DNA of 33,496 nt from an uncultured Lachnospiraceae bacterium (GTDB lineage: Bacteria > Bacillota > Clostridia > HGM11327). The stretch is from contig CAYOGO010000001.1 in assembly GCA_964403405.1 (NCBI GenBank), positions 1 through 33,496 on the forward strand. The letters are read 5' to 3'. Below, piece by piece: positions 2,314 through 31,836 of the stretch. Within the stretch, counting starts at the first letter, position 1. Every line of letters starts with the position of its first letter. Below the pieces are notes generated by a model. It was not told the origin of the DNA and searched no databases. It was given only the letters and a program-made list of their open reading frames with translations. A program made the position numbers and the translations under genes.

Positions 2314-2940
2314 TTAGAGCCTGATAATATGTTTATCTCCAAAAGCGATCTTTGTTATTTTCCCCGTTTTTACAACCCTCACAGTATGCTGTAATTTGTC
2401 GTAATCCAGAGCAATAACCTCGCAAGTACCAAGACCCGGATAAGAAATATATCTACCAACATCAACCGCCTCAATCTTTTTCATAGACAAGTCAAGATAT
2501 CTCTCATATTGCCAATTTGTTTTTGGCAGGTTGTCGTAAATATATTCTTCGCATTTCTGCTCGAATTCTTCTCGAGTAGAAAAATCTATCCCAGCCTTTT
2601 TGGTATCACGATGAAAGTCTTCCCGCAATCCTTTAACAGCCGTGCTATCGAATCTTTGTTCGTCGTACACATCAACATTGGATCCACTGACTCTATAGGC
2701 GCTTTTGGGAATACAAGGTTCGTAGCCATTGGCAGATAGGTCGTTTTGCATAAGCTCAATTGCTTCGTCAAAATCGTGACCATCATCGACATATTTTTTA
2801 ACAAGCTCGCACTCTAACTTTGCGTTAGTTCGCCGTATCGACGCAGTATATTCTCGTTGCTTTCTATCGTTTTCTTTATTGAAACCTTTGGCACTCAAAA
2901 ATACAACGACGATAACCAATACCGCAATAATTAACGGCAC
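2314..2940 (-). CDS. N-terminally membrane-anchored hypothetical protein (208 aa)
   Basis: ORF with a hydrophobic N-terminus, MPLIIAVLVIVVVFLSA. Its 5' 249 nt lie inside copy 1 of the tandem duplication. Confidence 0.7.
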   Translation of the reverse strand: MPLIIAVLVIVVVFLSAKGFNKENDRKQREYTASIRRTNAKLECELVKKYVDDGHDFDEAIELMQNDLSANGYEPCIPKSAYRVSGSNVDVYDEQRFDSTAVKGLREDFHRDTKKAGIDFSTREEFEQKCEEYIYDNLPKTNWQYERYLDLSMKKIEAVDVGRYISYPGLGTCEVIALDYDKLQHTVRVVKTGKITKIAFGDKHIIRL

Positions 2941-3389
2941 TACTGATCACCAACCTCTCCGTCTGGATAAAAGATATTTTTCCATTTTTCGTACATTACT
3001 TTATACCAGAACGCAGCGTGTCTGTCACATCCTACGATGTTCTATAGGCGCTTTTGGGAATACAAGGTTCGTAGCCATTGGCAGATAGGTCGTTTTGCAT
3101 AAGCTCAATTGCTTCGTCAAAATCGTGACCATCATCGACATATTTTTTAACAAGCTCGCACTCTAACTTTGCGTTAGTTCGCCGTATCGACGCAGTATAT
3201 TCTCGTTGCTTTCTATCGTTTTCTTTATTGAAACCTTTGGCACTCAAAAATACAACGACGATAACCAATACCGCAATAATTAACGGCACTACTGATCACC
3301 AACCTCTCCGTCTGGATAAAAGATATTTTTCCATTTTTCGTACATTACTTTATACCAGAACGCAGCGTGTCTGTCACATCCTACGATGT
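2692..3389. repeat. perfect tandem direct duplication, 2 x 349 bp
   Basis: 2692-3040 repeats at 3041-3389 (offset 349) with no mismatch seen by eye. A 3-nt microhomology (tct) sits at the junctions. Confidence 0.9.
3032..3289 (-). pseudogene. duplicated 5' fragment of the 2314-2940 gene (85-aa truncated copy)
   Basis: The first 83 aa are identical to the 208-aa protein. The ORF ends where the duplication junction changes the sequence. Confidence 0.7.
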
Positions 3390-4200
3390 TCTTGACGGCT
3401 ACGGTTAAAGCTCGAGAGTCTTGCTCTCCGCTCTCCAACATTCTGCAAAACGCTCCATTGTTTTGCAACGCTCTGGTACTAAGTCTGTGTCCGAATTGAT
3501 CAATAGCAACCACATTAAATCTCTTGACTGCCTGTGAAACTTTGTCTTTATCCATCTGGATAGATCTTGACGCCCGCATTAGGTATGGAGAATATTCATA
3601 CACTTGACGCTTCCCTGTTGGAAATCCACGATGCATATCTAACTCTGCGAACCTATGCAAAATGTTAAAATATTCAGTTGGTAGTACGATTGGCTCTCTG
3701 TTACGGAAAAGAACCGTCTTGTCGGCAACCGCGAGGTCGCTCTTTCTAATCTCTACCATTTCGGAGCGTTCAAGTCCGTGCCAACTTAATATGACAATTG
3801 ACTTAATCATCAGAAGGTCGTCTTCTTCATCAAGACCGCACCGTCTTCCGACGGCTCTAACGAAATCCAAAGCTCCGTCGAGATTGCTAAAATAGCAACT
3901 TCTGATTTCCTCGTCTGATATAACATCATCCATAGTAAGAGATGCGACGTATTCTCGTTGTTCTTGTGTCACTTTCCCAAGCTCAAAGAGCCAGTCATAC
4001 AATTCTTTGACATATTTCTTCATACGGAAGAATTGAGCCTTGCTAATCTTATCTGTGATATAGAAAAGTTCACAAGCTCTTGAATTATGTCTAAAATTAT
4101 CGTCGGCAAATACCTCTTCGATTTTTTTAATAATAATCTCAAGGCACTCTTCTTTCGGGAATTTGGCTTCACATCGCCTCAAAAACGGTTCAAAATCCAT
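3289..4200 (-). CDS. tyrosine-recombinase-like protein (divergent phage integrase family)
   Basis: ILSWHGLERSEMVEIRKSDL resembles the Arg-I box, and GHRLSTRAL and CDRHAAFWY resemble the HxxR and H..Y boxes. The match is weak. Confidence 0.45.
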   Translation of the reverse strand: MDFEPFLRRCEAKFPKEECLEIIIKKIEEVFADDNFRHNSRACELFYITDKISKAQFFRMKKYVKELYDWLFELGKVTQEQREYVASLTMDDVISDEEIRSCYFSNLDGALDFVRAVGRRCGLDEEDDLLMIKSIVILSWHGLERSEMVEIRKSDLAVADKTVLFRNREPIVLPTEYFNILHRFAELDMHRGFPTGKRQVYEYSPYLMRASRSIQMDKDKVSQAVKRFNVVAIDQFGHRLSTRALQNNGAFCRMLESGEQDSRALTVAVKNIVGCDRHAAFWYKVMYEKWKNIFYPDGEVGDQ

Positions 4201-4228
4201 AGCAGTATACCCCCAGTTTTAATAATTA

Positions 4229-4247
4229 TAGCACAGATTTAGACAAC
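4229..4247 (+). promoter_or_regulatory. plus-orientation degenerate copy of the 19-nt motif
   Basis: TAGCACAGATTTAGACAAC on the plus strand, between the 4200 start and the 4250 stop. It shares CA..TTTAGACAAC with the minus-strand copies. Confidence 0.3.
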
Positions 4248-4249
4248 CG

Positions 4250-4621
4250 TCAAGCATTATTAAGAATGTTTTTGAACTTTTCGATGTCTTCCTTTGTGTA
4301 TGTATAAGGGGTACTTATGTTATCGGAGATAAGTCGTCGTTTGCTCATTCTCTCTCCGCTAATAAGATTGTAGGCTCCGCCAATAATGGTGTCGCCTTCG
4401 ATATCGAAAAACACCGTCATATTTTCGATATCTTTATAGCCAGATAGATAATCTCGGTTCAATACATAAAAGAACTTTGATTCATCTTCTTTACTATGCA
4501 CCGAAGATTGTCGGTCATAGTAGACGGTTCCGTCTGGTGCTCGTCTTAAGTAACGAGCAAGTACATCGGGCGAATATTCGATAAGTGCTTGGGTAAATTT
4601 CTTACGCTGAGATATGTTCAT
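4250..4621 (-). CDS. hypothetical protein (123 aa)
   Basis: ORF whose ATG overlaps the integrase stop by 4 nt (coupled). Confidence 0.65.
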   Translation of the reverse strand: MNISQRKKFTQALIEYSPDVLARYLRRAPDGTVYYDRQSSVHSKEDESKFFYVLNRDYLSGYKDIENMTVFFDIEGDTIIGGAYNLISGERMSKRRLISDNISTPYTYTKEDIEKFKNILNNA

Positions 4622-5604
4622 TGGTCTGTTCCCTTCTCGGTGAGTAATTTTCCTATTGCGTCCAACCGCTCAAACACATCGTCAACTGTATATTGATTTC
4701 CTGCAATGATTTCGTTGACATTAGTTTTACCAAGAACAAAATCACTCACGGCAATTCTTGCTTTATCAAACATTATTTGATACGAGCCGAGATAACTCAT
4801 AGTCACTCTTTGATCGCTGTGATTAAGAAGTCCTTGAACCTTAGTAATTGCATTCATATCAATACAGGACTTGTCCACACAAGCGGCGATGTTTGCAAAG
4901 GACTTTCTCATCGTGTGGGATCCAATGACAAGCGGTAAGTTAAGAGCCTTACCTGCTTCTGATAAGATACGCCAACCACACTCTTCATACATTTTACCCT
5001 TGGTTTTACGGCTTGGAAAGAGAAAACCATTCAAATCAAACTCCCATTTGATTGAGTCCAAATACCTCGTCATAGCGTCAATTACAGACTCTGTAATGAG
5101 GATGTTGTTGAGTTTTCCTGTTTTCTGCTCGTAAATCTGAATTCTGGGCTTAAATGTTTTTTTGTCGTTGTCGATTATGTTACCAAACCGTAACGACAAA
5201 AGGTCTGATATACGCAACCCGAGGCTAACTCCGATAGTCCACATAGCCCAATCTCGAACTCTCCCAGCATCCAAATAATACTGTTGGATTGCTTTGAAAT
5301 CGTCATATGAACGGATTGCATCGGCGGCGTGAGCCTTGCGCTTACCGTCCGACTTGAAATCCGTATATGCGTTTGTGTCTATGGTGACCTCTCGTCGCTT
5401 TCGTCGTTTTTTAACAGGTTCTTGGGGTGCTTCTGGCAATTTCCCAAACCGTTCTTCAAGACGCTCTCTTATTCCCTGCTCGTACTCGAGTTGAATAGTG
5501 AGCCGTTTAATCTCTGCGTCTCTTTTTTTCAGTTCTCGATTCAATGCCTGAATCTGCATCAGATATACTTCTGGTGTTAGTACAACCTGAATATCCTCGT
5601 GCAT
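4618..5604 (-). CDS. int: site-specific tyrosine integrase
   Basis: GLRISDLLSL (Arg-I), GSHTMRKSFA (HxxR) and LLNHSDQRVTMSYLG (H...Y) are present. The ATG at 5604 lies 8 nt after GGAGAGGAG; the track's 5613 start is a GTG. Confidence 0.9.
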   Translation of the reverse strand: MHEDIQVVLTPEVYLMQIQALNRELKKRDAEIKRLTIQLEYEQGIRERLEERFGKLPEAPQEPVKKRRKRREVTIDTNAYTDFKSDGKRKAHAADAIRSYDDFKAIQQYYLDAGRVRDWAMWTIGVSLGLRISDLLSLRFGNIIDNDKKTFKPRIQIYEQKTGKLNNILITESVIDAMTRYLDSIKWEFDLNGFLFPSRKTKGKMYEECGWRILSEAGKALNLPLVIGSHTMRKSFANIAACVDKSCIDMNAITKVQGLLNHSDQRVTMSYLGSYQIMFDKARIAVSDFVLGKTNVNEIIAGNQYTVDDVFERLDAIGKLLTEKGTDQ

Positions 5605-5636
5605 TTTTATCACTCCTCTCCTATATTATACTACTT

Positions 5637-5858
5637 TTAGCGACAATTGTCACTATCTTCCTTTTGTTCGTCCGTCTGTTCACCACTTATCATATCTTCA
5701 AATGCGTACAATTGGTTAAATATCGCACCGAGCATTGGACAATGGATACAATCTGGAACTCCGTTATGTATGCGGCACCTTTCGGTGCCGAAGTTTACAC
5801 AAGTGACGCAATCGCGTCCATCTTGGTCTTTTACAATCTTCGTCAGTCTTGTGTACAT
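5637..5858 (-). CDS. hypothetical Cys-rich protein (73 aa)
   Basis: ORF with CVTC...C..H...C.HC spacing. It overlaps the mazF 3' end by 16 nt. Confidence 0.5.
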   Translation of the reverse strand: MYTRLTKIVKDQDGRDCVTCVNFGTERCRIHNGVPDCIHCPMLGAIFNQLYAFEDMISGEQTDEQKEDSDNCR

Positions 5859-8303: not shown

Positions 8304-10538
8304 TTATTCGTCCTTGAACAACTTTCCCTCTTCTGTTTCAAAGAACATCTTTCTCAGCGAACAGATATCTTTAGGGATGATAACCTCTGGGTTTTCAACT
8401 TCAATATTATGAAGTGTTTTAACCCATCCGTAATACTGATTTGCAATCGCAGAAGTAAGCGCAGACGTCTTTCTTCCGTCGATATATCCCTTACGAATCG
8501 CCTCGTGAGAAATAGATCTCATAAACTTCCAGAAATTATAGTAATGGAGTTTGAGCTTCACCATATATCCGTTTGCGTCTTCAATAACAAATCCCTCGAT
8601 GTGTCTGTTCTCGTATTTGTAATCTTCGCTTGTTACAACATAGTACCAATCGAAGAATTCCTGCCAACTCTCAAGAACGTATGCCTTTTCTTTGTGCGTA
8701 AGACCGAAATCGTTCGCAACGGAACACATAGTCTCGTAGTCGTACTTTCGATATTTCATATCGTTATATACAATGTCGAGCAAGAACAGCTTGTCCTCGT
8801 CGTATTCGATGATATGAGGGTCGTTTGTCATATCTACGCACTCAAACACAAACGAAACATCGTGCTCTTTACAATACTCCTTAATTCTGTTAAGGGTTTC
8901 GTCGGTGTACTTTCTACGAAGCATATCCTTGAGCCATACGGCAAAATCTCCATCAGGACAAGATTTTGTAGTCACAAACAACGAGTCGTCGTCTGCTCCG
9001 TAAGACACAATGCCGAGATAACCATTCTCTTTCACATATGCTGCTGCCGGGAATGACAACTTATACTGAAGCATATCGAGCTTCGTCTCGGGGCGTTCGT
9101 TGATGTTAAAGAACTTATCATATGCTCTTGCGGCGACCTTTTGTCTTGGAATATCAATATACAGACCGCGAGCCTTCGTTGTCTGCTCGTCCCAAACCTT
9201 ATCGTAAAACGCCGTCTTGGTGAAATTGAACGAGGAAATGTTCCCGTACTGCTTTTCCTGCACATAACGATTCTGTCTGAGAGCAATAATCATATCTCCG
9301 ACCGTTTGCTCTCCCTTGGTAGCAGGCTCTGGACGCACTTCTCTTTCCTTAAACACATTGTTCTTGATTTCCACGACGGTATGAGTTCCGTCTGGCGTTA
9401 CCTGAACGCATCTAAGATGACCGCCAAACTCAACCTGCCCCTCAAGGTTAAACACTCTGTCATTTACTTTCGTAGGTAATTGCTTAGTATTTCTGTGTCC
9501 GTGGATCTGATAGCAATTATCTGGAGTGTTTTCAACAAAGGCGTTTGCAACAGCCTCAAAGTCGTTGTAATTACCAACACCTCTGATCATCTGCGAGGTT
9601 GCTACGGTTGTCATATTGTTGGGGATATTACTCAGTCCAGCGTGAGTAACAATGTATGTATTACCTGCATAGGTGTAGTAGGCGCATTGACCGAGCTTGC
9701 GATACAACTGCCGAACGAGTTTCTTATTGACCTGTGCATTATTAAGCTCTGTCTTCGTAACAAGCTCAAACTCCTTTGACGAACTGACACCGTCATTCGC
9801 CCATACCCATAGCCATCTCTCGTGATTACCCTCGAGCAACCACACATTAGGCTTTTGGTCAATACCCATCAAGAAGTTAATTACTTGCGCGTTCTCAACT
9901 CCTCTGTCGATATAGTCACCGCAGAAAATATACAGTTCGTCGTCTTTGAATCCGCCGTCCTGATCAAAATACTCTTTTAATGCGGTGTAACAACCGTGAA
10001 TATCGCCGATATGATGTACCTTCTTGTACTGCGATACGTCGAGAGGTTTCATCCAAATTCTGTCGAGCTCGTCGGGTTTAATGACTGTAATTCCCGACGG
10101 AATTTTCTGAGTCTGGAAACGAGCGTACATCTTGTCGATTGCATCGTCAGGCACTTGCTTGACTTCGGGACGCATACGATTGCGCTCCTTGACAACCTCG
10201 ATGGGGATATCAGTAAAGTCAACGCAATAAATGCGATACTTATATGAGTCGCAAAGCTCTTTGTAACGATTCATTTCGGATGTCTTGGAGTTCGTTGCGT
10301 CGATAACTGTGAACTCGCCGTTTTGCATACGAAGCTCCAATAGCTTAAACAGTGTGCTCCACACGACATTGTCGTTCATAGGATTGATGGCTTCTTTTCC
10401 AGACACAGTCATAATCGGGCTCGAACACTGCATTCTGATATCATCCGCCGACAGCGTATAATTCTTCAGTCCATTCTGTTCAATCCACGTTGACTTACCG
10501 CACCCGCAACTTCCTCTAAGTAATAAAAGAACTCTCAT
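8304..10538 (-). CDS. pnkp: trifunctional polynucleotide kinase / 2',3'-phosphatase / RNA ligase-type adenylyltransferase (bacterial Pnkp-like RNA repair enzyme)
   Basis: N-terminal P-loop GSCGCGKST. Central lambda-phosphatase motifs GDIHGC, GDYIDRG and GNHE. C-terminal nucleotidyltransferase motif I, KENG (VKENGYLG). Confidence 0.85.
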   Translation of the reverse strand: MRVLLLLRGSCGCGKSTWIEQNGLKNYTLSADDIRMQCSSPIMTVSGKEAINPMNDNVVWSTLFKLLELRMQNGEFTVIDATNSKTSEMNRYKELCDSYKYRIYCVDFTDIPIEVVKERNRMRPEVKQVPDDAIDKMYARFQTQKIPSGITVIKPDELDRIWMKPLDVSQYKKVHHIGDIHGCYTALKEYFDQDGGFKDDELYIFCGDYIDRGVENAQVINFLMGIDQKPNVWLLEGNHERWLWVWANDGVSSSKEFELVTKTELNNAQVNKKLVRQLYRKLGQCAYYTYAGNTYIVTHAGLSNIPNNMTTVATSQMIRGVGNYNDFEAVANAFVENTPDNCYQIHGHRNTKQLPTKVNDRVFNLEGQVEFGGHLRCVQVTPDGTHTVVEIKNNVFKEREVRPEPATKGEQTVGDMIIALRQNRYVQEKQYGNISSFNFTKTAFYDKVWDEQTTKARGLYIDIPRQKVAARAYDKFFNINERPETKLDMLQYKLSFPAAAYVKENGYLGIVSYGADDDSLFVTTKSCPDGDFAVWLKDMLRRKYTDETLNRIKEYCKEHDVSFVFECVDMTNDPHIIEYDEDKLFLLDIVYNDMKYRKYDYETMCSVANDFGLTHKEKAYVLESWQEFFDWYYVVTSEDYKYENRHIEGFVIEDANGYMVKLKLHYYNFWKFMRSISHEAIRKGYIDGRKTSALTSAIANQYYGWVKTLHNIEVENPEVIIPKDICSLRKMFFETEEGKLFKDE

Positions 10539-12170: not shown

Positions 12171-12253
12171 TGGTGCGGATAACAGGAGTTGAACCTGCAC
12201 GGGTAACCACCAGATCCTAAATCTGGCGTGTCTGCCAATTCCACCATATCCGC
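12171..12253 (-). tRNA. tRNA-Leu (anticodon UAG), class II, CCA encoded
   Basis: Acceptor GCGGATA/TATCCGC; anticodon arm CCAGA-TTTAGGA-TCTGG; long variable arm; T arm GCAGG-TTCAACT-CCTGT; 83 nt. Confidence 0.9.
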
Positions 12254-18430: not shown

Positions 18431-18619
18431 TTATTTGCGAGCGTCTGCAATTGACGCAATCATATTGGCGCTGACTATGCCAAAGTTGATTCCAAGCAAC
18501 CAAATATAAAGGTTGTCATTTGTTGCTGTAACGATGTTAAAAATACCAAGGATTGTAAGCAGTATCAGCCAAACGGCATCCAATATTACTCGATTCCATC
18601 TGTTCCAAAACTTTCTCAT
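18431..18619 (-). CDS. small two-TM membrane protein (62 aa)
   Basis: Two hydrophobic segments (ILDAVWLILLTILGIF and LLGINFGIVSANMIASI). The ATG overlaps the DGR RT stop by 4 nt. Confidence 0.55.
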   Translation of the reverse strand: MRKFWNRWNRVILDAVWLILLTILGIFNIVTATNDNLYIWLLGINFGIVSANMIASIADARK

Positions 18620-19659
18620 ATTGCCTCCTGTGCTGTATTATTAAATAGCTGCGATACGAATTCATCCATACTTTCCAATAGTCTGTGACAGTTTCCGTGA
18701 GATGCGTGATTTTTCCAAGGCTCATACTTCTCTGTGAACGATTCCATCGTCATCTTCCCATTGATTACAAGTCTTGCGTACTTTCTCAATCTTTTCTTGA
18801 TTTGTCGTTTGTTTTCGCCAGTTAATCGACGAATGATAACACCGTCTTCGGTAATGTATGTATGAAATCCAAGAAATCTCAACCCTTTGCGTATCGACAC
18901 GATTTCCGTTTTATTGTTCAAAGTCAGGTGTAAAGTATCGAGATATTCTTCAATACGCTTGAGGCAATACTTCAAATATTCTTTGTCTTCGGATATTAGA
19001 TAAAAGTCATCCATATATCTTCCGTAATACTTACACCCGAGCTCTTCGGTAATAAAGATGTCAAGCCCCGCCAGATAAATCAAAGCGAAAACCTGACTGC
19101 ACTGATTACCAAGCGGCAGACCGTTCCCGTCTGTGCTGTCTATAAACAGATCGCACAACCACTGGATCTCCTCGTCCGTGAAATACTGACGAATGATTGC
19201 TTTCATCACATCGTGATCAATGCTATAAAAGAACTTCGTTATATCACACTTGAGAATATATCCATCGCATCCGTGTTCTTGGTAGAACAAACGCATATTC
19301 TCGGAAAGCCGGTCTAACCCAAACAAGGTTCCTTTCCCAATCTGTCCTGCGTAATTGTCTTTAATGAAAACTTCTTTCATTCTCGGCAATAATACGTAGT
19401 CACATAGGCAGTGCTGTAAAACCTTGTCGCGGAAAGAACCTGATTTGATGTTTCGCGGTTTGGGTTCAGTGACAACAAATTCTGCGTAAGGAGATATTTG
19501 GTATGTATGTTCAATCAACTGTCGCCTCATAACGCATATGTTTTCAAGTGCCATAGCGTCAAATTTTATAGCGCCTTTCTTTTTTCCCTTTCCCCTCATA
19601 GACTTCTTGTATGACTTATACAAGTTGCCGAAATCTGTTACAATCTGAAAATCTCCCAT
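18616..19659 (-). CDS. diversity-generating retroelement (DGR) reverse transcriptase
   Basis: RT motifs include the DGR-specific LPLGNQCSQ ([I/L]GxxxSQ) and YMDDF. The gene lies immediately downstream of the TR. Confidence 0.92.
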   Translation of the reverse strand: MGDFQIVTDFGNLYKSYKKSMRGKGKKKGAIKFDAMALENICVMRRQLIEHTYQISPYAEFVVTEPKPRNIKSGSFRDKVLQHCLCDYVLLPRMKEVFIKDNYAGQIGKGTLFGLDRLSENMRLFYQEHGCDGYILKCDITKFFYSIDHDVMKAIIRQYFTDEEIQWLCDLFIDSTDGNGLPLGNQCSQVFALIYLAGLDIFITEELGCKYYGRYMDDFYLISEDKEYLKYCLKRIEEYLDTLHLTLNNKTEIVSIRKGLRFLGFHTYITEDGVIIRRLTGENKRQIKKRLRKYARLVINGKMTMESFTEKYEPWKNHASHGNCHRLLESMDEFVSQLFNNTAQEAI

Positions 19660-19773
19660 AATATTCCTTTGTATTTATCCCACATCCTGTGAGAAAGGTT
19701 ATATGCTCTTTTGATAGTGTGGAGCACTCCTTGTAGCCACCGAAGTGACTTATAGACCTCACTTATCCACCAG

Positions 19774-19856
19774 AACGGGCGAACGCCGCCGTTGTCATTG
19801 TCGCAGTCGTTCCAGTTCAGAACGCCATTCGAGTTGACGTAGCAAACGTTACGAGC
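19774..19856 (-). repeat. DGR template repeat (TR), 83 nt
   Basis: Aligns over 83 nt with 20282-20364 (9 differences) and 29482-29564 (10 differences). Every difference is at a plus-strand T of the TR, which is A on the transcribed minus strand. Confidence 0.92.
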
Positions 19857-19881
19857 ATCAGCATATAGCCTAAAACATCAA

Positions 19882-20244
19882 TCAGGTCTTCCGCCAAGCA
19901 AGTGTCATATTTTTGATGTCGTGAACCAAGCCAGTCCACGTCTCGCTTGTGGCATAACTAATGAGGTGAGCGTGAAGACTATACTTCACAAGACTCATAA
20001 GCTTATTACACTTTGTAATTGCGCTTGTCTGTAACTCAAACCTCTTTGCTTTGTGTTGTGGCGTTTCAGCTCTATATCCGTTAGCATCAAGAATATCACT
20101 ATGGATATCAAGTGCGTATTCTTGGAGCCGAGTAGCCAATCTTTGAAATTTAACGGGATAATGACTTCGGTTGGTGGTTATGTCAAAAATCGAGAAGTAA
20201 AGTGCCTCGCTCTTTCCCGCAATTTCAAATGTTGTTTCTGGCAT
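19882..20244 (-). CDS. avd: DGR accessory variability determinant (Avd-like four-helix-bundle protein)
   Basis: 120-aa helical basic protein located between the target gene and the TR, which is the canonical position and size. Confidence 0.7.
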   Translation of the reverse strand: MPETTFEIAGKSEALYFSIFDITTNRSHYPVKFQRLATRLQEYALDIHSDILDANGYRAETPQHKAKRFELQTSAITKCNKLMSLVKYSLHAHLISYATSETWTGLVHDIKNMTLAWRKT

Positions 20245-20250
20245 AGTGTG

Positions 20251-20853
20251 TTAAATCAAGAGAGAAGATTTCAAGATACAAAACGGGCGAACGCCGCCGC
20301 TGCCAATGTCGCAGGCGTTCCAGTCCAGAACGCCATTCGAGCGGACGCAGCAAACGTCACGAGCGTATCCCTCTACATCTGCACTTACTCTTGTCGCCGT
20401 ATGCCACCAACTTCCGTATGCGGGCAAGAATTTTCTGTACGCTCTGTATCTTTCTGTCGTCAGAATAGACACATAGTCTTCACAAACCTTTACTCCCGTT
20501 CCGTCATCAGCCGTCAGGTCTGTCTGATGCTTCACGATATTTTCCTTACCTACAGCACCTGCGATTTCCTTATAGAAATCGTTATTCAAGTAGGCGCGGA
20601 TATCGCTGTTGAGATAATCGCCCGTCTTTCCGAACGCCATCTTCTTAACGAAATCCTTGGCGATAACCGCCGTAACACCATTCAGATGCTGAAGAACAAT
20701 GTATTCTCTTTTGCCGAGCTTAATAATCGCTCCGGGCTCGTGCTCTCCAAGAGCTTTACATCCCTCGGGAGACAATGTAATAATAACAGTACCGTCATTC
20801 TCGCTCGTTGTTACCCTTACGTTGGGTGCGTTGTTTACAATTTCAACTCTCAT
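20251..20853 (-). CDS. DGR target protein 1 (C-type-lectin-fold variable C-terminus)
   Basis: ATG at 20853 after AGGAGAAAATCA. The C-terminus ...WWHTATRVS...NGVLDWNACDIGSGGVRPFCIL contains VR1. Confidence 0.85.
   Translation of the reverse strand: MRVEIVNNAPNVRVTTSENDGTVIITLSPEGCKALGEHEPGAIIKLGKREYIVLQHLNGVTAVIAKDFVKKMAFGKTGDYLNSDIRAYLNNDFYKEIAGAVGKENIVKHQTDLTADDGTGVKVCEDYVSILTTERYRAYRKFLPAYGSWWHTATRVSADVEGYARDVCCVRSNGVLDWNACDIGSGGVRPFCILKSSLLI
20282..20364 (-). repeat. DGR variable repeat VR1
   Basis: 83-nt match to the TR with 9 A-site substitutions. It ends 31 nt before the stop codon. A GC-rich IMH-like GGCGGCGTTCGCCCG lies at its 3' end. Confidence 0.9.
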
Positions 20854-23569: not shown

Positions 23570-24712
23570 TTACGGATTAAGCAAAGCCTTCGCCGTAGCT
23601 AAAACATCTTTATTGAATTTTGTGGAGTACGCATTGAGAATTTTGTCAATCTCCTCGCCCTCTACCATCTTGTAGTAGGCAACGAGACCAAGGAAATGCT
23701 GTACGTCCTCGAGTTCCCAAGCAACGCCTTTCGCATCGTCAGTCATAAACTGGAAGATCATTGCTTTGAAGACCTTTTTCTTTTCGTGACCGATTGTAAT
23801 CTTGTTCTCTTTGTTGAGCATAACTCCCAAATTCCAGTTTCTTCCCGCCGAAGAACCATATCTGGTCTTCTCTGCGTTAAGCGTAAACGGAGCTGAGAAC
23901 TGATTGAAAATGTCGGTTATCTTGTTCTGCACGGCCGTCCAATGGAAACTGAACTGGCTGGAAATCAACATATCGTCAGCGTATCTTGTATAACAAAGAT
24001 GCGGACTGTATTCACGACACATCTTTGCAATCGCGTGATCGATGGGAATCATCATCATATTCGTCAGCATTGGACTGGTGGGCGTTCCCTGCGGCAAACC
24101 GCCATTCAGGAAACAAAGAGATAATGCTTTTTGAAGCACCTCTCTGTATCCGTAATCATAATTTACGAACACACAAAACGGATAAAGCTCGCAGAGCATA
24201 TCCATCAAAAACTTCTCTGTAGTGGACGGAAAGAAACCCTGTGCATCGAGTTTTAAGAACCAACGGGAGTTGTTTGTCTGGTGACGCTTTACGCTGTCAA
24301 TCGTGCTTCTACCGTGAACATACGCAAAAGCGGTAGTATGATAGGATGCGAAAAATTTCTTTTCGAGAATTTCTTTCAGCTCTCTCAAAGCCTTCATCAG
24401 CTCGTCTTGGGGAGCATCTATCTTACGCAAACCGCCACTTCTTTTAGGAATTTTGAAACTTCTATAAAGCACAGACTTATCTTCCGTATTGATAAGACCT
24501 GCGTACTTTTCGTTAAAAGCCACGAGAGCTTCATACATACCACGGAAGTTTGTCTTTTCGATCAAATTGGGGTTAATGTTGTTTGTGAGCCACGTCCTTG
24601 TGTCTCTGGTGTCTTTCGCCGGCATAAAATCCGACTCACTACATCCGTTCAGGATATCGTCAAACGTGAGCTGATACGTTCTCGGTTCGACATTTACGGT
24701 AATATACGGCAT
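23570..24712 (-). CDS. retron-type reverse transcriptase (380 aa)
   Basis: Block-by-block similarity to the Ec86 RT: FKIPKRSGGLRKIDAP, KLDAQGFFPS, GLPQGTPTSPMLTN, YTRYADDMLIS and LGVMLNKENKITIGHEKKKVFKAMI (the VTG-region equivalent). ATG at 24712 after AAAGGAAC. Confidence 0.85.
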   Translation of the reverse strand: MPYITVNVEPRTYQLTFDDILNGCSESDFMPAKDTRDTRTWLTNNINPNLIEKTNFRGMYEALVAFNEKYAGLINTEDKSVLYRSFKIPKRSGGLRKIDAPQDELMKALRELKEILEKKFFASYHTTAFAYVHGRSTIDSVKRHQTNNSRWFLKLDAQGFFPSTTEKFLMDMLCELYPFCVFVNYDYGYREVLQKALSLCFLNGGLPQGTPTSPMLTNMMMIPIDHAIAKMCREYSPHLCYTRYADDMLISSQFSFHWTAVQNKITDIFNQFSAPFTLNAEKTRYGSSAGRNWNLGVMLNKENKITIGHEKKKVFKAMIFQFMTDDAKGVAWELEDVQHFLGLVAYYKMVEGEEIDKILNAYSTKFNKDVLATAKALLNP

Positions 24713-24725
24713 ATTGTTCCTTTCT

Positions 24726-25054
24726 TTCTGTAATCGCGAGGTACAGATGACTGTCTGAAGACTCACCGCGGTCGGCGATGCATCTTCTGCGTCGTCATCG
24801 CAAGGTTAACAGGCGGTAGTCGGGTGGGCAAAGCTGTAAGGAAAACGGGTGTGATTTGGTAATGACGGGTTGGTTTCAAGTAAATTTAATATTAACTTGA
24901 CACTTATCCGCACGAAATGGCTCCGAGCACCTCGTTACTCCTGATGGAGGCGTCACGCCTTCTGTCCCACTGGGGCTGCCATCTCTTGACATTTTGGTAC
25001 TTTCGGTAAAACCCAAAGCCTTGTGTCCGAAGAAACAAGAATAACATTACAGAA
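24726..25054 (-). ncRNA. candidate RT-associated ncRNA (retron msr-msd-like)
   Basis: 329-nt region free of ORFs >=60 aa between rnhA and the RT. It is bounded by the 9-nt inverted repeat TTCTGTAAT (25054-25046) / ATTACAGAA (24734-24726), with a G right after the 5' arm. A UUCG-capped hairpin lies at ~25020-25040, and there are several GC hairpins. Confidence 0.4.
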
Positions 25055-25059
25055 TTGTT

Positions 25060-25500
25060 TTATTTTTGATTGTTGGTGTAAGCCTCTACGGCAAGTTGGT
25101 CACAGCGCTCGTTTTCTGGGTGACCATTATGTCCTTTGATCCAAACAAATTTGACTTTGTGAACCTTGAGTAGCGATAAGAGTTCTTCCCATAAGTCTGA
25201 GTTCTGGGCAGGCTTACGGTTAGACTTTCTCCAACCATTTGCCTTCCAGCTTTCAGCCCAACCTTTCTCAATGCCGTTTACAACGTACTGAGAATCGGTT
25301 GTCAAAACAACCTCGCACGGCTCTCTTAATGCATACAGTGCTTGAATAGCAGCCGTCAACTCCATTCGGTTGTTCGTCGTGTCTGGGTTAAACCCCGATA
25401 ATTCTTTGATCGCGGAGCCGTACCTTAATACGGCTCCCCAACCACCACTTCCGGGATTGCCAGAGCACGCCCCGTCTGTGAATATTTCGACACGCTTCAT
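25060..25500 (-). CDS. rnhA: ribonuclease HI
   Basis: [25 protein letters not shown]...TTNNRMEL...TDSQYV...[16 protein letters not shown] is near-collinear with E. coli RNase HI, with the DEDD residues present. ATG at 25500 after GAGGAA. Confidence 0.95.
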
Positions 25501-25519
25501 ATATGTTTTCCTCAACGAA

Positions 25520-26206
25520 TTACATCGTCATAATATCCATAGCGAACGGATTGCAGACAACGATCTTCTGCAATTCGCCGCCACGAATGAGGTTCATAAA
25601 GTTTGTAACGCCGAGAGCACAAATTACCCTAACTGTAGGGGCGACACCGAGCTCTGTGCCGCAGGCTGTTACAGGAGTAGCCTCGTGTGCTTCGTCGTGA
25701 GAGAAAGCCATCGACTTGATAAGATTGTCCACCTGACGCATATCGCCCCAGTCTGCGGCGTAATGCTGTGCATCTTCAAGACGCGTTCTGAAATCAAACA
25801 CGGCTTTGATTGCCTTGTTCATACGATTCTTCTCGCAGATTTCACGTCTCAAGTCGATATTATCAACGGCAAGGAACACGTAACCGTTGAGCTTCTGATC
25901 TGTGTATCCCTGCCCGAACACCTCTATGGTGCTTTCCGCTTCGGGGTTGATATCACAGATGATTTTCTTAACTGCTTCAACCTTAGGTTTCTTGACGTCG
26001 CTCTGTACGAACATCTGATTTGCAAGGTTGTGCGGCTCGACAATGTCGAAATCATAAAGAACGAATTTCGTCACGCCGAGTCTTGCGAGATTTTCTGCGA
26101 CAGTAGATCCCACGCTGCCACAACCGATGATGTGGCACTTGCCACGTACGTTGACCGGATCAAAGTATTCGATAGACTTTGTTAAATCCATTAGTGCCAC
26201 CCCCAT
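25520..26206 (-). CDS. minimal ThiF/MoeB-type E1-like adenylyltransferase (~223-228 aa)
   Basis: [38 protein letters not shown] is a Rossmann/ATP loop of the E1 superfamily. The start is at 26206 or the TAATG-coupled 26191. Confidence 0.8.
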
Positions 26207-27102
26207 TCTCTCGAGTAGAACGGATCACTCGGGTCTTCGTCAACCCCATAGTAATCATCGTCGTCATCTCTTACGTTTGTGCTTTTTGTGTCGTTTTTTT
26301 TACTGTATCCAGTTCCTGCGGCGGACGGAGTTTTAGCCGTCGGCTTCTGAGAACCACCATACGAGTTTCCGCCGTATGAACTTCCGTTGTACGAACCTCC
26401 ATATCCATTGTAGGAACTGCCGTAACTCTTACCGCCGTAAGACGAAACAGTCTGCACAGCAACTTTCTTTGCCTCCAAAACGAAATTGTCAACGGTATCG
26501 CCGTCGTCGAGCATCACCATCATATCAATTTCCTTGGCAGTCGTCGAATACATAGCGTTGTACGTTAAATCGTAGATTTCTGCGCTCCAATCGTGACTTT
26601 TGTTGATGATGAGGAAGATGTAGAATGTATCGTTATTGGCATCGGGTTTAGGAAGCTGGGTGATAACGTCCTTGCGATAATCGGTATCGGTTACGGACGG
26701 AGATACCGGCATATTGACGTGAGAATGTCCGTGGAAACGGAGCGCGTTAAATTTTTCGTCGTCAAGACCGTTAATCCAGTTGGAATATTTCTCCTGATCG
26801 GATGTAACGGTTGCGGCGGTTACAGTGTGAGGAGGAACAAGAATATCGTAAATCTCAAACTCACACTCGGAGAGACGTCTGACTAAGCCGTGCCACTGAA
26901 CCTCCGTAGAAAATTCAGAGACGAGAGCCGTCATCTTAATCCACGCCATAGGCGTGAAGTAAAGCAACGCACATCTGTCGTCGCTCTTAAAATTCTGTCG
27001 GATGTCAATGCTACCATAGCACTTCGAGTTGAGAATCTGCGCTCTCAAGGCTTCGATAATGCGTGTAGCCTCATCCTGCGGTACATAAATTGGCTTAGCC
27101 AT
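26191..27102 (-). CDS. JAB/MPN (JAMM) metallopeptidase with S/Y/G-rich low-complexity tail
   Basis: JAMM motif H126-S-H128-x7-S136-x2-D139 (nt 26686-26727). C-terminal SSYGGKSYGSSYNGYGGSYNGSSYGGNSYGG is followed by an acidic DDDDDYYGVDED stretch. Confidence 0.8.
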   Translation of the reverse strand: MAKPIYVPQDEATRIIEALRAQILNSKCYGSIDIRQNFKSDDRCALLYFTPMAWIKMTALVSEFSTEVQWHGLVRRLSECEFEIYDILVPPHTVTAATVTSDQEKYSNWINGLDDEKFNALRFHGHSHVNMPVSPSVTDTDYRKDVITQLPKPDANNDTFYIFLIINKSHDWSAEIYDLTYNAMYSTTAKEIDMMVMLDDGDTVDNFVLEAKKVAVQTVSSYGGKSYGSSYNGYGGSYNGSSYGGNSYGGSQKPTAKTPSAAGTGYSKKNDTKSTNVRDDDDDYYGVDEDPSDPFYSREWGWH

Positions 27103-28468
27103 TCTGCTGTTCTCCTTCGTTTAAGATTTTGAGAAATTCATTCACCGATACCATCTTGCCGTCGGTGAGTTTGATGCAACGCACACTTCTGTGGCGGTCG
27201 AGCCAGTTAATCATATTGCCGACAACGGTCGAGTCGCCAAAGTTCAAGTTCTTTGTCGCACCAATAGCCTGTTCAATGGCGAGTTGCCACTCTCCGCTAT
27301 CGGCATACTTGGAATAATACTGGTCGTTTCCTCCCGAACATCTGTAAAAATAAATGTGCGGGTGAGGAAGCAAATCTTCGCGGCTAAGTTCTTTATGCAT
27401 ACTGATGTATCTCATACTACCCAGAGAGAATACTGCGTTTACAACGAACACACCCTTGTGTTCTGCAAAAATTGCATTCATAACTCTCGGAATTTCGTCG
27501 GACGATGCCTCAGTATGAATATAAGATCTCTTTTTCTTGTAGATGGAAATAAACTCATCCTCATCGTAAAACTCAAGAGTCTCCGTGATTCCAAACTTGA
27601 TTGTGTCGCCATCCGTGTAAACGATATCCAGACACTTGTGACTGCTGAAAAAGTCAAACAACTCCGTAGTTGCCTCCTCGGGAGCTTCTTCAAGCGCCTT
27701 GAGCAATCTCTGGTTGTCGGACAATTGTCTGTAAAGCTTTTCCATCTCAAGCTGGTATCGTTGAATCGAGTTGATATTGTTATTGACGGCGCTTCTATAC
27801 GACGACAACTGCGTTTCCCTGATGGATTTCTCAAATCCATCGAGGTACTTGTGCAAGGACATATCTCTGAAGTCGAGCTTCTCTGCTGCACGGTTTATGT
27901 AGTCAACAAGGATGTTTTCTGCTTCAGCTTCACTCACATCCTTGTTGTTTACAGAGATAGCCTTGAAAAATGCCTGCTCTTCAGCAGAGAGTTCAGAGGT
28001 GAAATACCACCGAAACACTCTGGCAAAGGTCGAGATAAATCCTTGTATCCACTTAGCCGTAGCCTGTCTATCAACAGCGACTACAACTCTCTGCTTGTCC
28101 ACATTTACGAACACTCTGGTCTTCGCAAACTGGCTCAAGTATCTGCTGATAGGGTATGGAGGTTTATCAAGAGACTCCCAACCATCGTGTGTCAGCTCGC
28201 TCGGGAAATACCCATTTCTTGTTTCGCAGATGATAACCGCATACCCGTCTGCGTCAAACGCGGCTCTGATGTCTCGCTCATTGCTGATTCTATGCATCAA
28301 GACGGTCGATCCCTTGACAATGCTGTCAAGAGTCCATTCGGTACGCTCGATGATAATGGCTCTTAAAAACGCCACCAACGAGTAGTCGCCATTTACGGAA
28401 TTTGCTCCGCCAAGGATATTATCGGCTTCGCGACCTACCAGCCTCATCCTTTCTTTGGAAATTTGCAA
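27095..28468 (-). CDS. 457-aa protein with candidate C-terminal E2 (UBC)-like domain
   Basis: TTG start 7 nt after AAAGGGGTG. The C-terminal LPHPHIYFYRCSGG...EWQLAIEQAIG resembles the HPN...C flap plus following helix of E2 enzymes. The N-terminal ~290 aa are unrecognised, with a coiled-coil at 200-265. Confidence 0.4.
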   Translation of the reverse strand: MQISKERMRLVGREADNILGGANSVNGDYSLVAFLRAIIIERTEWTLDSIVKGSTVLMHRISNERDIRAAFDADGYAVIICETRNGYFPSELTHDGWESLDKPPYPISRYLSQFAKTRVFVNVDKQRVVVAVDRQATAKWIQGFISTFARVFRWYFTSELSAEEQAFFKAISVNNKDVSEAEAENILVDYINRAAEKLDFRDMSLHKYLDGFEKSIRETQLSSYRSAVNNNINSIQRYQLEMEKLYRQLSDNQRLLKALEEAPEEATTELFDFFSSHKCLDIVYTDGDTIKFGITETLEFYDEDEFISIYKKKRSYIHTEASSDEIPRVMNAIFAEHKGVFVVNAVFSLGSMRYISMHKELSREDLLPHPHIYFYRCSGGNDQYYSKYADSGEWQLAIEQAIGATKNLNFGDSTVVGNMINWLDRHRSVRCIKLTDGKMVSVNEFLKILNEGEQQNG

Positions 28469-28497
28469 GGTATTTCACCCCTTTCTGTCTTACCTAA

Positions 28498-28740
28498 TTA
28501 GAGCGCGAGTGCGCCATCTGCCTTGACAATGGCGTTAAGGTTCGCAGTGGAACCATCGGCAACTCTGAGCTCCTCAAAGGTCTTGCCGAAGTCTGCTGCG
28601 GAGAGGATTGCACCGTCGAGATTGACCATCGAAGTAGAAGTATCAACGCCAAGCTCGGCGAAAACCTCACGGGGAGTGGAGGTTACATCTGCGGAAACGG
28701 TGCGGCGGGTAGTGTTAGTTCTTACATTGATCGAAATCAT
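28498..28740 (-). CDS. ThiS/MoaD-like ubiquitin-like beta-grasp protein (80 aa)
   Basis: ATG at 28740 lies 10 nt after AAGGAG. VNLDGAIL...LRVADGSTANLNAIVKADG-ALAL parallels the ThiS pattern vNg..v...l.dGD.v.i...v.GG. Gly76 is followed by a 4-aa tail. Confidence 0.55.
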   Translation of the reverse strand: MISINVRTNTTRRTVSADVTSTPREVFAELGVDTSTSMVNLDGAILSAADFGKTFEELRVADGSTANLNAIVKADGALAL

Positions 28741-28826
28741 AATTACTTTTCTCCTTGAAATCAAATGTTTTTTGTTTTGTTTTTTTTGGTGTTCGTAACC
28801 CTGTTATCGCCTCAGGGGTGCCTTAA

Positions 28827-29441: not shown

Positions 29442-30194
29442 TCAACTGTGAGCAGTCAAGACACAAGATTTCAAGATACAAAACGGGCGAACGCCGCCGC
29501 CGTCACAGTCGCAGCCGTTCCAGTCCAGAACGCCAAGCGAGCCGACGTAGCAAACGTTACGAGCGTATCCGCTTTCTTCGATAGCGCTCTTTCGTGTGGC
29601 AGTCCACCACCATCCGTCTGAACGAATGTGTTTGCTGTACTTTCGATAACTGTCAACCGTCATCAGAGAGATATAGTCTTCGACAAATCCGTAATCAGCT
29701 CTGCCGTCCTCTGGCGTTGTGTCAACGCGATGCTTGATGATATTCTCTGCTCCAACAACCGCAGCAAGCTCGTTGTAATATTCTTCGTTTAGATATCGAC
29801 GAACCCTGCTCGTTTCGTAATCTGCTTCGTCTCCGAAAGCCATAAAGTTTACAAAATCATAGTGTAGCAAAAGCACGTTCTCTCCGATGTAATCAAGCAC
29901 GATATACTTCCATCTGCCAAGTCTAACTTGACTGCCAACGGTAGGCAAACCATCTGCCGTACCAGATACGTTATACGAATTCATATCAATGATTTTTTGT
30001 GCAGGAACTTCTGCGGGAATAAAGTTCTGGTAGATACACCCTGTACTCTCTCCGGGCATACCTGCAAACAACGGACACCCTGCACAGCCCGTAGTTCTTC
30101 CCCAACAAAACTCTTGGATGCTATTTATCGCATCCGCTACATTTTGCGGCAACCCGATTGCCTCGGGTGTAATAGTGGTTTCTCTTTCTGACAT
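29442..30194 (-). CDS. DGR target protein 2 (remote target, 250 aa)
   Basis: The C-terminus ...WWWTATRKS...LGVLDWNGCDCDGGGVRPFCIL is paralogous to target 1 and carries VR2. GAAGGGAG SD. Confidence 0.85.
   Translation of the reverse strand: MSERETTITPEAIGLPQNVADAINSIQEFCWGRTTGCAGCPLFAGMPGESTGCIYQNFIPAEVPAQKIIDMNSYNVSGTADGLPTVGSQVRLGRWKYIVLDYIGENVLLLHYDFVNFMAFGDEADYETSRVRRYLNEEYYNELAAVVGAENIIKHRVDTTPEDGRADYGFVEDYISLMTVDSYRKYSKHIRSDGWWWTATRKSAIEESGYARNVCYVGSLGVLDWNGCDCDGGGVRPFCILKSCVLTAHS
29482..29564 (-). repeat. DGR variable repeat VR2
   Basis: 83-nt match to the TR with 10 substitutions, all at TR adenines (minus strand). It shares the same IMH-like 3' end and downstream TTTTGTATCTTGAAATCTT as VR1. 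Confidence 0.9.
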
Positions 30195-30632: not shown

Positions 30633-30661
30633 ATTATAACACTTGAATTTCGGTTTGTCAA
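30633..30661 (-). promoter_or_regulatory. consensus sigma-A promoter TTGACA-17-TGtTATAAT
   Basis: Minus-strand cctcTTGACAaaccgaaattcaagTGtTATAATt has perfect -35 and -10 boxes with an extended -10. Confidence 0.75.
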
Positions 30662-30905: not shown

Positions 30906-31196
30906 TTATTTGTTATGCTTACTCCTTTGTAACGCCTTTATGATTAAAGGCACAGAGGCGACAATCAGAATAAGCCCGGGGACGAGGGCGAACATCGCTT
31001 CAAACTCCATACAATCAGCGTAAAGGTAAACTCCTATTGCCGATGCCGCTAAACCCACTAAAAGCATAGCAATTAAAGCCACTCCCTGCACTGTTGTCAA
31101 GCGTGACTTTTGTTGCTTGATCGGACACCCACAGTGAATACAGCTCTGGGCTTGATCGGATATTTCTTTTCCGCAATCTGGACATTTGATAAGCAT
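30906..31196 (-). CDS. zinc-ribbon membrane protein
   Basis: MLIKCPDCGKEIS...CIHCGCPI is followed by two TM segments. The start at the internal Met (31196) avoids overlap with the upstream gene. Confidence 0.65.
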   Translation of the reverse strand: MLIKCPDCGKEISDQAQSCIHCGCPIKQQKSRLTTVQGVALIAMLLVGLAASAIGVYLYADCMEFEAMFALVPGLILIVASVPLIIKALQRSKHNK

Positions 31197-31807: not shown

Positions 31808-31836
31808 ATTATATCATACCAAGCACAATTTGTCAA
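31808..31836 (-). promoter_or_regulatory. consensus sigma-A promoter TTGACA-17-TGaTATAAT
   Basis: Minus-strand ggcTTGACAaattgtgcttggtaTGaTATAATaacc. Confidence 0.75.

Follow-up and report, generated by a model that had tools for sequence, protein, structure and literature searches.

A diversity-generating retroelement with one template and two small DUF6273 targets in a fragment of a large gut Clostridia phage

The stretch of DNA analysed here (the window) is an entire contig of 33,496 nucleotides (C1; CAYOGO010000001.1), the biggest of the 354 contigs in a 1.6-Mb metagenome-assembled genome (MAG) of an uncultured Lachnospiraceae bacterium, and nearly all of its likely genes lie on the minus strand. 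It carries a diversity-generating retroelement (DGR) whose parts follow each other on that strand in the order target gene, avd accessory gene, template repeat (TR) and reverse transcriptase (RT) gene; all features of the element described below are on the minus strand. A previous reading of the sequence alone (the sequence-only reading) had proposed a complete DGR in this order, which is that of BPP-1, and the RT, Avd, the TR and a DUF6273 target were all found. The RT gene (18616..19659) is an intact open reading frame (ORF) of 347 aa, and its translation contains the two hallmarks named in that reading, LGNQCSQ and YMDDF, which represent the [I/L]GxxxSQ motif and the YxDD catalytic site by which the DGR clade of RTs is recognised. 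It matched RVT_1 (E 1.3e-14) and the DGR-type family phrog_1423 (E 6e-110). The 120-aa gene between target and TR (19882..20244), described earlier as Avd-like, gave no Pfam or NCBIfam match and was identified by phrog_3206, "Avd protein of DGR" (E 1.4e-13). Target 1 (20251..20853) is a 200-aa DUF6273 protein (PF19789, 33.5 bits against a cut-off of 23.5; phrog_9958, E 2e-30) whose first residues, MRVEIVNN, are common to its homologues. A second target gene (target 2, 29442..30194) was located 9.2 kb away from the cassette. It codes for a 250-aa protein (PF19789, E 1.6e-9, 38.3 bits) that is 51% identical to target 1 over 161 aa. Both are single-domain DUF6273 proteins with a C-terminal variable repeat (VR), encoded at the 3' end of the gene.

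The TR (19774..19856) is 83 nt long, contains 18 adenines and ends in GGCGGCGTTCGCCCGTT (19790-19774). A repeat search returned it within an 86-nt direct repeat (19771-19856 / 20279-20364, 88% identical), and blastn against the whole MAG found exactly two imperfect copies of it, both in this contig: VR1 (20282-20364), which codes for aa 164-191 of target 1, and VR2 (29482-29564, matched by blastn over 29479-29564) in target 2. Base-by-base realignment of the 83-nt core agreed with the nine TR/VR1 differences reported before, each of them at a TR adenine (T on the plus strand); the chance that nine out of nine differences fall on 18 A among 83 bases is 1.5e-7. In VR2, 10/10 core differences are also at TR adenines. 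The GC-rich block that the sequence-only reading had likened to an initiation of mutagenic homing (IMH) element and placed at the end of the VR is GGCGGCGTTCGCCCG(TT), and it closes not only the TR (19790-19774) and VR1 (20298-20282) but also VR2 (29498-29482). Its 17-mer is the same in the TR and both VRs, and divergence (C versus T) sets in one base later, as an extra C>T difference at 19773/20281. Since VR2 has this difference too, it marks the end of TR/VR homology and not a mutation at a non-adenine position. About 20 nt of 3' flank are common to VR1 and VR2 and absent from the TR, and this shared flank may plausibly be an extension of the homing signal. In sequence, this arrangement is consistent with an IMH in the VRs and a differing IMH* in the TR, which would make the transfer one-way. 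When the TR is read in the frame of the targets, seven adenines are at the first codon position, eleven at the second and none at the third. Eleven codons contain them, namely seven AAY codons, three GAC and one TAC, from which no substitution of a TR adenine can reach a stop codon, and the theoretical repertoire of the TR is about 4e10 proteins.

Contigs of the same phage were retrieved from public assemblies through exact copies of neighbouring proteins. The resulting sample comprised 13 Logan contigs (L094-L106) from six runs of two accession series (SRR17221322, SRR17221326, SRR17221341, SRR22923222, SRR22923233 and SRR22923244). Outside the VRs these contigs were identical to the window at 99.9-100%, apart from one substitution within the RT gene and, in three contigs, length differences of a single base upstream of target 2. 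The TR was unchanged in L094, the one contig spanning it. A whole VR was spanned by four contigs, and its sequence differed in each; within each VR, phage copies whose flanks agree at 99.9-100% over kilobases show 9-14 differing positions. When the six VR versions were pooled, 60 changes were counted at 108 adenine-site opportunities, as compared with 1 at 390 elsewhere (Fisher p = 3e-46), and every one of the 18 TR adenines was changed in at least one version. Since near-identical copies of the phage differ in their VRs almost wholly at TR adenines, the element is active and diversifies its targets in nature. The sequence-only reading had named a lack of VR heterogeneity in reads together with an inactivated RT, or else non-adenine changes on realignment, as observations that would count against it: the RT is intact, and a single non-adenine change was found among the 61 changes across samples. 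The protein databases show the same pattern. The cluster of target 1 at 90% identity has 85 distinct members. When 20 close homologues were aligned, hypervariability fell on aa 166, 169, 171, 173, 177, 179, 180 and 182-185, the 11 columns of the adenine-bearing codons, with only scattered single substitutions elsewhere; in a set of 16 sequences (15 listed cluster members and the window copy) the variation was likewise concentrated at these codons. Several contigs begin or end inside the VRs; such breaks, and the chimeric nature of L094 described below, are what assemblers usually produce at DGR repeats.

The avd-TR-RT interval of six relatives (70-78% RT identity) was aligned and folded with RNAalifold. 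The spacer between TR and RT (Sp, 19660..19773) is strongly conserved among them, and it contains, in the direction of transcription, a UUCG-capped hairpin (19750-19735), an invariant ATCAAAAGAG (19715-19706), the 3' arm of a duplex (19707-19697), a second hairpin (19694-19678) and an A-rich run (19677-19666). The 5' arm of this duplex lies on the other side of the TR (19860..19870), so that 11 bp bracket the TR, and the two arms show compensatory changes. Among 101 related loci the arms occurred as 55 distinct pairs; pairs 4-11 were at least 98% canonical, with 2-7 canonical pair types each. Overall pairing across the 12 positions scored was 89%, against 29-48% with the partner slid, a percentage that is inflated by retaining only arms scoring at least 10/12, an inflation that leaves the covariation unaffected. 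In BPP-1, Handa et al. described an avd:Sp "cPRT Stop" duplex, an Avd-binding stem-loop and A-minor adenosines, and predicted the same RNA elements in 207 other DGRs (bioRxiv 2023.10.23.563531). The duplex, the hairpins and the A-rich run of the window correspond to these elements. Because its RNA elements match those of BPP-1, the mechanism of the element is very probably the canonical one of DGRs, and we infer that priming takes place from the invariant ATCAAAAG stretch.

In the AlphaFold2 (AF2) model of target 1 (pLDDT 91.4), a short beta-hairpin at the N-terminus is predicted ahead of a globular domain, and the VR would fall on the last strands of that domain (166-170 and 176-180). Its best match in the PDB by Foldseek was 9qa6, the DUF6273 N-terminal domain of an IgA peptidase from Thomasclavelia ramosa (E 6e-5), and its matches in BFVD were DUF6273 proteins of gut phages. 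In the model of target 2 the DUF6273 domain has a pLDDT above 90 and the N-terminal extension one of about 40. This extension of 85 aa (window 29940-30194) contains a four-cysteine motif, C-x6-C-x2-C-x13-C, which is conserved in the 250-aa type of target and absent from the 200-aa type; it might bind a metal or serve as a docking module. Neither target matched an Ig-like or Fn3 domain, and no hydrophobic stretch resembling a signal peptide was seen at either N-terminus when the translations were read by eye. The conserved cysteines 124, 168, 181 and 192 showed no strict co-occurrence as disulfide pairs, a result that says nothing on an extracellular role. A C-type lectin (CLec) fold has been assigned to DUF6273 DGR targets (PMC10743442), and the lectin-like fold proposed for the proteins of the window would rest mainly on that work.

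We consider it highly probable that the element is a functional DGR diversifying two small hypervariable ligand-binding proteins, a confidence that extends to the mechanism and to the binding nature of the proteins but not to the ligand. The parts of the element, the restriction of changes to adenines, the codon design, the covarying duplex and the diversification between samples are direct observations, and to these, priming in cis, the role of Avd and the mechanism of homing can be added as they would be expected from BPP-1. In this scheme, the avd-TR-Sp-RT region would be transcribed, and the RNA would fold so that the 11-bp duplex brackets the TR and the UUCG hairpin follows it. The RT, together with Avd, would make a cDNA of the TR, misincorporating at random opposite adenines. 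This cDNA would then replace VR1 in the neighbouring gene of 200 aa and VR2 in the paralogous 250-aa gene 9.2 kb away, being directed to both by the common GC-rich 3' block and the flank of about 20 nt. In each case 11 codons would be recoded without introducing stop codons, which would give some 4e10 proteins varying on a beta-hairpin face of the presumed C-type-lectin-like DUF6273 domain. The DGR of the window reveals no new mechanism.

No recognisable structural gene was found on the 33-kb contig in family scans of the window proteins. The accessory genes that it carries code for ArdA, a DUF1281_C protein, a Pnkp/RNA ligase and a Thg1-like protein, and they are accompanied by five tRNAs, genes resembling those of PRPP synthetase (PRPP/NAD genes) and an integrase gene. 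The ArdA gene (PF07275, 33.1 bits against a cut-off of 27) lies directly upstream of target 1. The sequence-only reading had singled out this target as a small protein in an accessory block next to ArdA and not an obvious tail fibre. Its size of 200 aa, its position beside ArdA and its location outside a tail module were all borne out. A small target outside any tail module proved to be the standard layout of this RT clade and is already described in the literature, and the adjacency to ArdA is not conserved. A specific link between target and ArdA was accordingly rejected, since relatives at 70-74% RT identity have Thg1-like or other genes at this place. Between the two target genes (23570-28764) there is a further group consisting of a retron-type RT (NF038233, E 7e-56; PADLOC RT_II-A, E 9e-52), an RNase H and a ThiF/E1-like gene, and this retron-type RT region is kept in the strain relatives L107 and L108. 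At the other end of the cassette, a hydrophobic ORF of 62 aa, resembling two membrane helices (18431-18619), overlaps the stop codon of the DGR RT; it is conserved in the strain relatives L094 and L107 but not in more distant ones, such as L001. Five near-consensus sigma-70 sites were predicted, all on the coding strand, against 0.25 expected by chance (4225-4253, 5625-5653, 30633-30661, 31072-31100 and 31808-31836). Two of the five match at 12/12 positions with an extended -10, and the site at 30633..30661 on the minus strand, about 440 nt upstream of target 2, is a perfect predicted consensus promoter (TTGACA-17-TGTTATAAT). In one relative (L005), a longer conserved promoter-like repeat (AAAAAACTATTGACA...TATAAT) precedes several accessory genes including its DGR target.

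The window is a fragment of a large gut Clostridia phage of about 100 kb or more. Its nearest relatives are, on the one hand, uncultured IMG/VR phages of 100-164 kb and, on the other, contigs of ruminant and other gut origin that were binned with Clostridia MAGs. A megablast of 25 kb of the window against INPHARED found no related phage, the sole match being 80 nt over a tRNA-Leu (12171-12253), and an exact scan of IMG/VR for the GC-rich 17-mer returned 13 contigs, none of them from the same phage. One relative, G001, is complete (163.7 kb) and has terminase, portal, tape measure, tail protein and endolysin genes in one arm. Its structural proteins found nothing in the MAG by tblastn except one small fragment. 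This arm of G001 also contains a DGR of its own (locus L200, G001:C1 2368-12707; RT 2368-3660, TR 3941-4073, VR 5001-5130), which serves a 2570-aa DUF6273 protein that is encoded next to the endolysin and tail genes and has the VR at its C-terminus. In the other arm lies the orthologue of the window DGR, which has one small target beside it and a second small one 22 kb away. G001 therefore runs two DGRs, each with its own TR. The same signs, namely a 2071-aa ORF and a TR-like match, were seen in G003.

The layout was further surveyed in 160 loci with a related RT. In about 100 of them, two targets of roughly 170-260 aa stand in tandem immediately upstream of Avd; most of the rest have a single target, and none was obtained from about 16, which are for the most part the most distant relatives. 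An Avd homologue was found in 150/160 loci, and a single-stranded DNA-binding protein (SSB) homologue within 10 kb in 77. In one relative of about 55 kb (L014), the cassette has Ant and an SbcC-like gene to one side of it, and RecT, a metallo-beta-lactamase (MBL) hydrolase and SSB to the other. The small-target cassette is thus a self-contained module that habitually resides in early or replication regions, of which the window is a variant whose second target has been split off by 9.2 kb of accessory genes. With SSB, RecT, SbcC-like and MBL-hydrolase genes as its neighbours, a coupling of cDNA homing to replication or annealing is conceivable. In a reconstituted DGR, homing depends on the direction of replication (PMC12875486), which offers a mechanistic reason both for cassettes being near replication genes and for the two targets sharing the orientation of the TR. 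In the relative L001, a segment of about 445 bp (8495-8940) that reaches from the end of a PTH2-like gene across the intergenic region into about the first 50 codons of the target is inverted with respect to its flanks. No terminal inverted repeats were found, and it is probably an assembly artefact.

Several observations weigh against the interpretation as a functional DGR that diversifies ligand-binding proteins. One VR2 variant, in L105 (SRR22923222), has a non-adenine change, a T>G at the equivalent of TR 19841; it adjoins an unchanged A and could be an assembly error or a rare non-adenine event. Of the adenine changes 49/60 are A>G, an unexplained skew that is strong for a process usually described as near-random and that could come from a misincorporation bias of the RT or from selection for Asp, Ser or Gly. 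The heterogeneity was seen between assemblies and not within one population, and L094 is chimeric across the VR, which can be assigned to neither target. With regard to the fold, the sequence-only reading had expected a structure prediction to give a CLec fold; a confident model was obtained, but the C-type lectin domains of CD23, Ly49 and NKG2A match it weakly (Foldseek, E 0.4-3), Mtd and TvpA are both absent from its top 50 PDB matches, and a profile search of PDB sequences gave noise only. A different history of the repeats would make their similarity a relic, the VR differences being old fixed mutations or the products of gene conversion between the paralogous targets. Such a history would fit the 3' flank that VR1 and VR2 have in common, and the join in L094 of the region upstream of target 2 to that downstream of target 1 can be read as recombination; that join, however, is a typical outcome of de Bruijn assemblers at a shared repeat. 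Moreover, 60/61 changes are at TR adenines in phage copies with 99.9-100% identical flanks, gene conversion between paralogues cannot make new bases limited to adenine sites, and the RT, Avd and the TR are, like the RNA elements, intact and conserved. We regard a relic as extremely improbable.

The role of the diversified proteins is a separate matter. That they act as adhesins or receptor binders, either attached to the virion or released, in the manner of Mtd or of the nd4/nd12 "tgt2" proteins, is the reading that we favour, with slightly less than an even chance of being right; the lack of a structural gene in the 33-kb window and the occurrence of the cassette in non-structural modules across the clade speak against a virion role. 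It is rather unlikely that the targets are not virion proteins and act instead as leaderless cytoplasmic early binders in the conflict between phage and host, where they might bind or inhibit variable host defence proteins or exclude competitors. Both target genes lie among counter-defence and auxiliary genes (ArdA, DUF1281_C, retron-type RT with ThiF/E1, Pnkp/RNA ligase, Thg1-like, tRNAs and PRPP/NAD), perfect sigma-70 consensus promoters are predicted on the coding strand, including one 440 nt upstream of target 2, and neither N-terminus looks like a signal peptide by eye. The relatives point in the same direction: G001 keeps a separate DGR in its structural arm and the small-target DGR in the other, the cassette of the relatives of about 55 kb is flanked by SbcC-like/Ant and RecT/MBL hydrolase/SSB, and SSB occurs nearby in 77/160 loci of the clade. 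The same proposal was made for the Quimbyvirus target (Benler et al. 2021, PMC8008677). Gene position is nonetheless a weak argument for large phages, as their structural genes can be dispersed, and the vicinity of replication genes may have the mechanistic basis given above (homing versus replication direction, PMC12875486). In addition, DUF6273 occurs in virion-type or extracellular proteins (tentaclins, the giant ORFs of the relatives and the IgA peptidase's N-terminal domain), Mtd, the only experimentally characterised phage DGR target, is a receptor-binding protein, and no similarity of the targets to known anti-defence proteins was found. Less probable still is the extension of the cytoplasmic role to the whole clade, whereby its stand-alone DUF6273 proteins would be an early-expressed hypervariable repertoire that neutralises variable host defences, an "antibody-like" counter-defence, with the large relatives keeping a separate DGR for their giant structural fibre protein. 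The available sequence analysis does not separate the virion-adhesin and the non-virion readings.

In the window, a large gut phage has a clean, active DGR neither of whose targets lies among structural genes, and according to the comparative data this layout is the norm in a whole RT clade of gut Clostridia phages. This sharpens the question, raised before for Quimbyvirus and Shimadzu, of the role of small free-standing lectin-like proteins diversified by a DGR. With VR variants across samples, a conserved RNA scaffold and a compact target of 200 aa, the clade is convenient for experiments on that role.

Small DUF6273 targets, DGRs with two targets and DGR targets in defence islands have all been published before. 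The DGR of BPP-1 (mtd-avd-TR-Sp-brt) resembles the element described here in gene order, in the adenine-specific transfer from TR to a VR at the 3' end of the target, in Avd, in the GC-rich element ending the VR, in the RNA duplex between the region upstream of the TR and the spacer, and in the stem-loop after the TR. It differs in its target, since Mtd has 381 aa against 200 aa here, shares no sequence similarity with target 1 and possesses a beta-prism and a beta-sandwich that dock on the tail fibre and that are missing from the protein of the window. In addition, the window has two targets, one of them 9.2 kb away, and its cassette lies outside any tail module. Closer in type are nd4_tgt2 and nd12_tgt2, small single-domain DUF6273 targets of 234 and 294 aa (Baykov et al. 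2023, PMC10743442), whose C-terminal VR forms a surface beta-hairpin and which, as here, belong to systems where one TR serves two DUF6273 targets. By tblastn, 28-35% identity was found to ORFs of nd4 and nd12. In these systems, however, the other target is a large tentaclin (DUF6273 with Ig-like domains), whereas both are small in the window, and the phage of the window is much larger. Tentaclins, which combine DUF6273 with Ig-like/Fn3 domains, also contrast with the single-domain targets and C-terminal VR found here.

Two VRs per TR with DUF6273 targets have also been described in Toutatisvirus (bioRxiv 2024.10.15.618418) and in Lelie/CP11 (PMC11792537), and in Shimadzu orf43 is a remote second DGR target, both VRs being experimentally modified (bioRxiv 10.1101/575076). 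These phages of Faecalibacterium/Roseburia share with the window a remote second target and a C-terminal VR in DUF6273; one of their targets belongs to the tail module or is Hoc-like, in contrast to the window, where neither does. Finally, Benler et al. (2021) found a DGR target of Quimbyvirus in a counter-defence island that includes a tRNA ligase and proposed a non-structural role for it (PMC8008677). In that case, as in the present one, activity was inferred from differences at adenine sites between near-identical genomes. Quimbyvirus differs in having a Bacteroidetes host, a frameshifted RT and one of its two targets next to tail-fibre genes.

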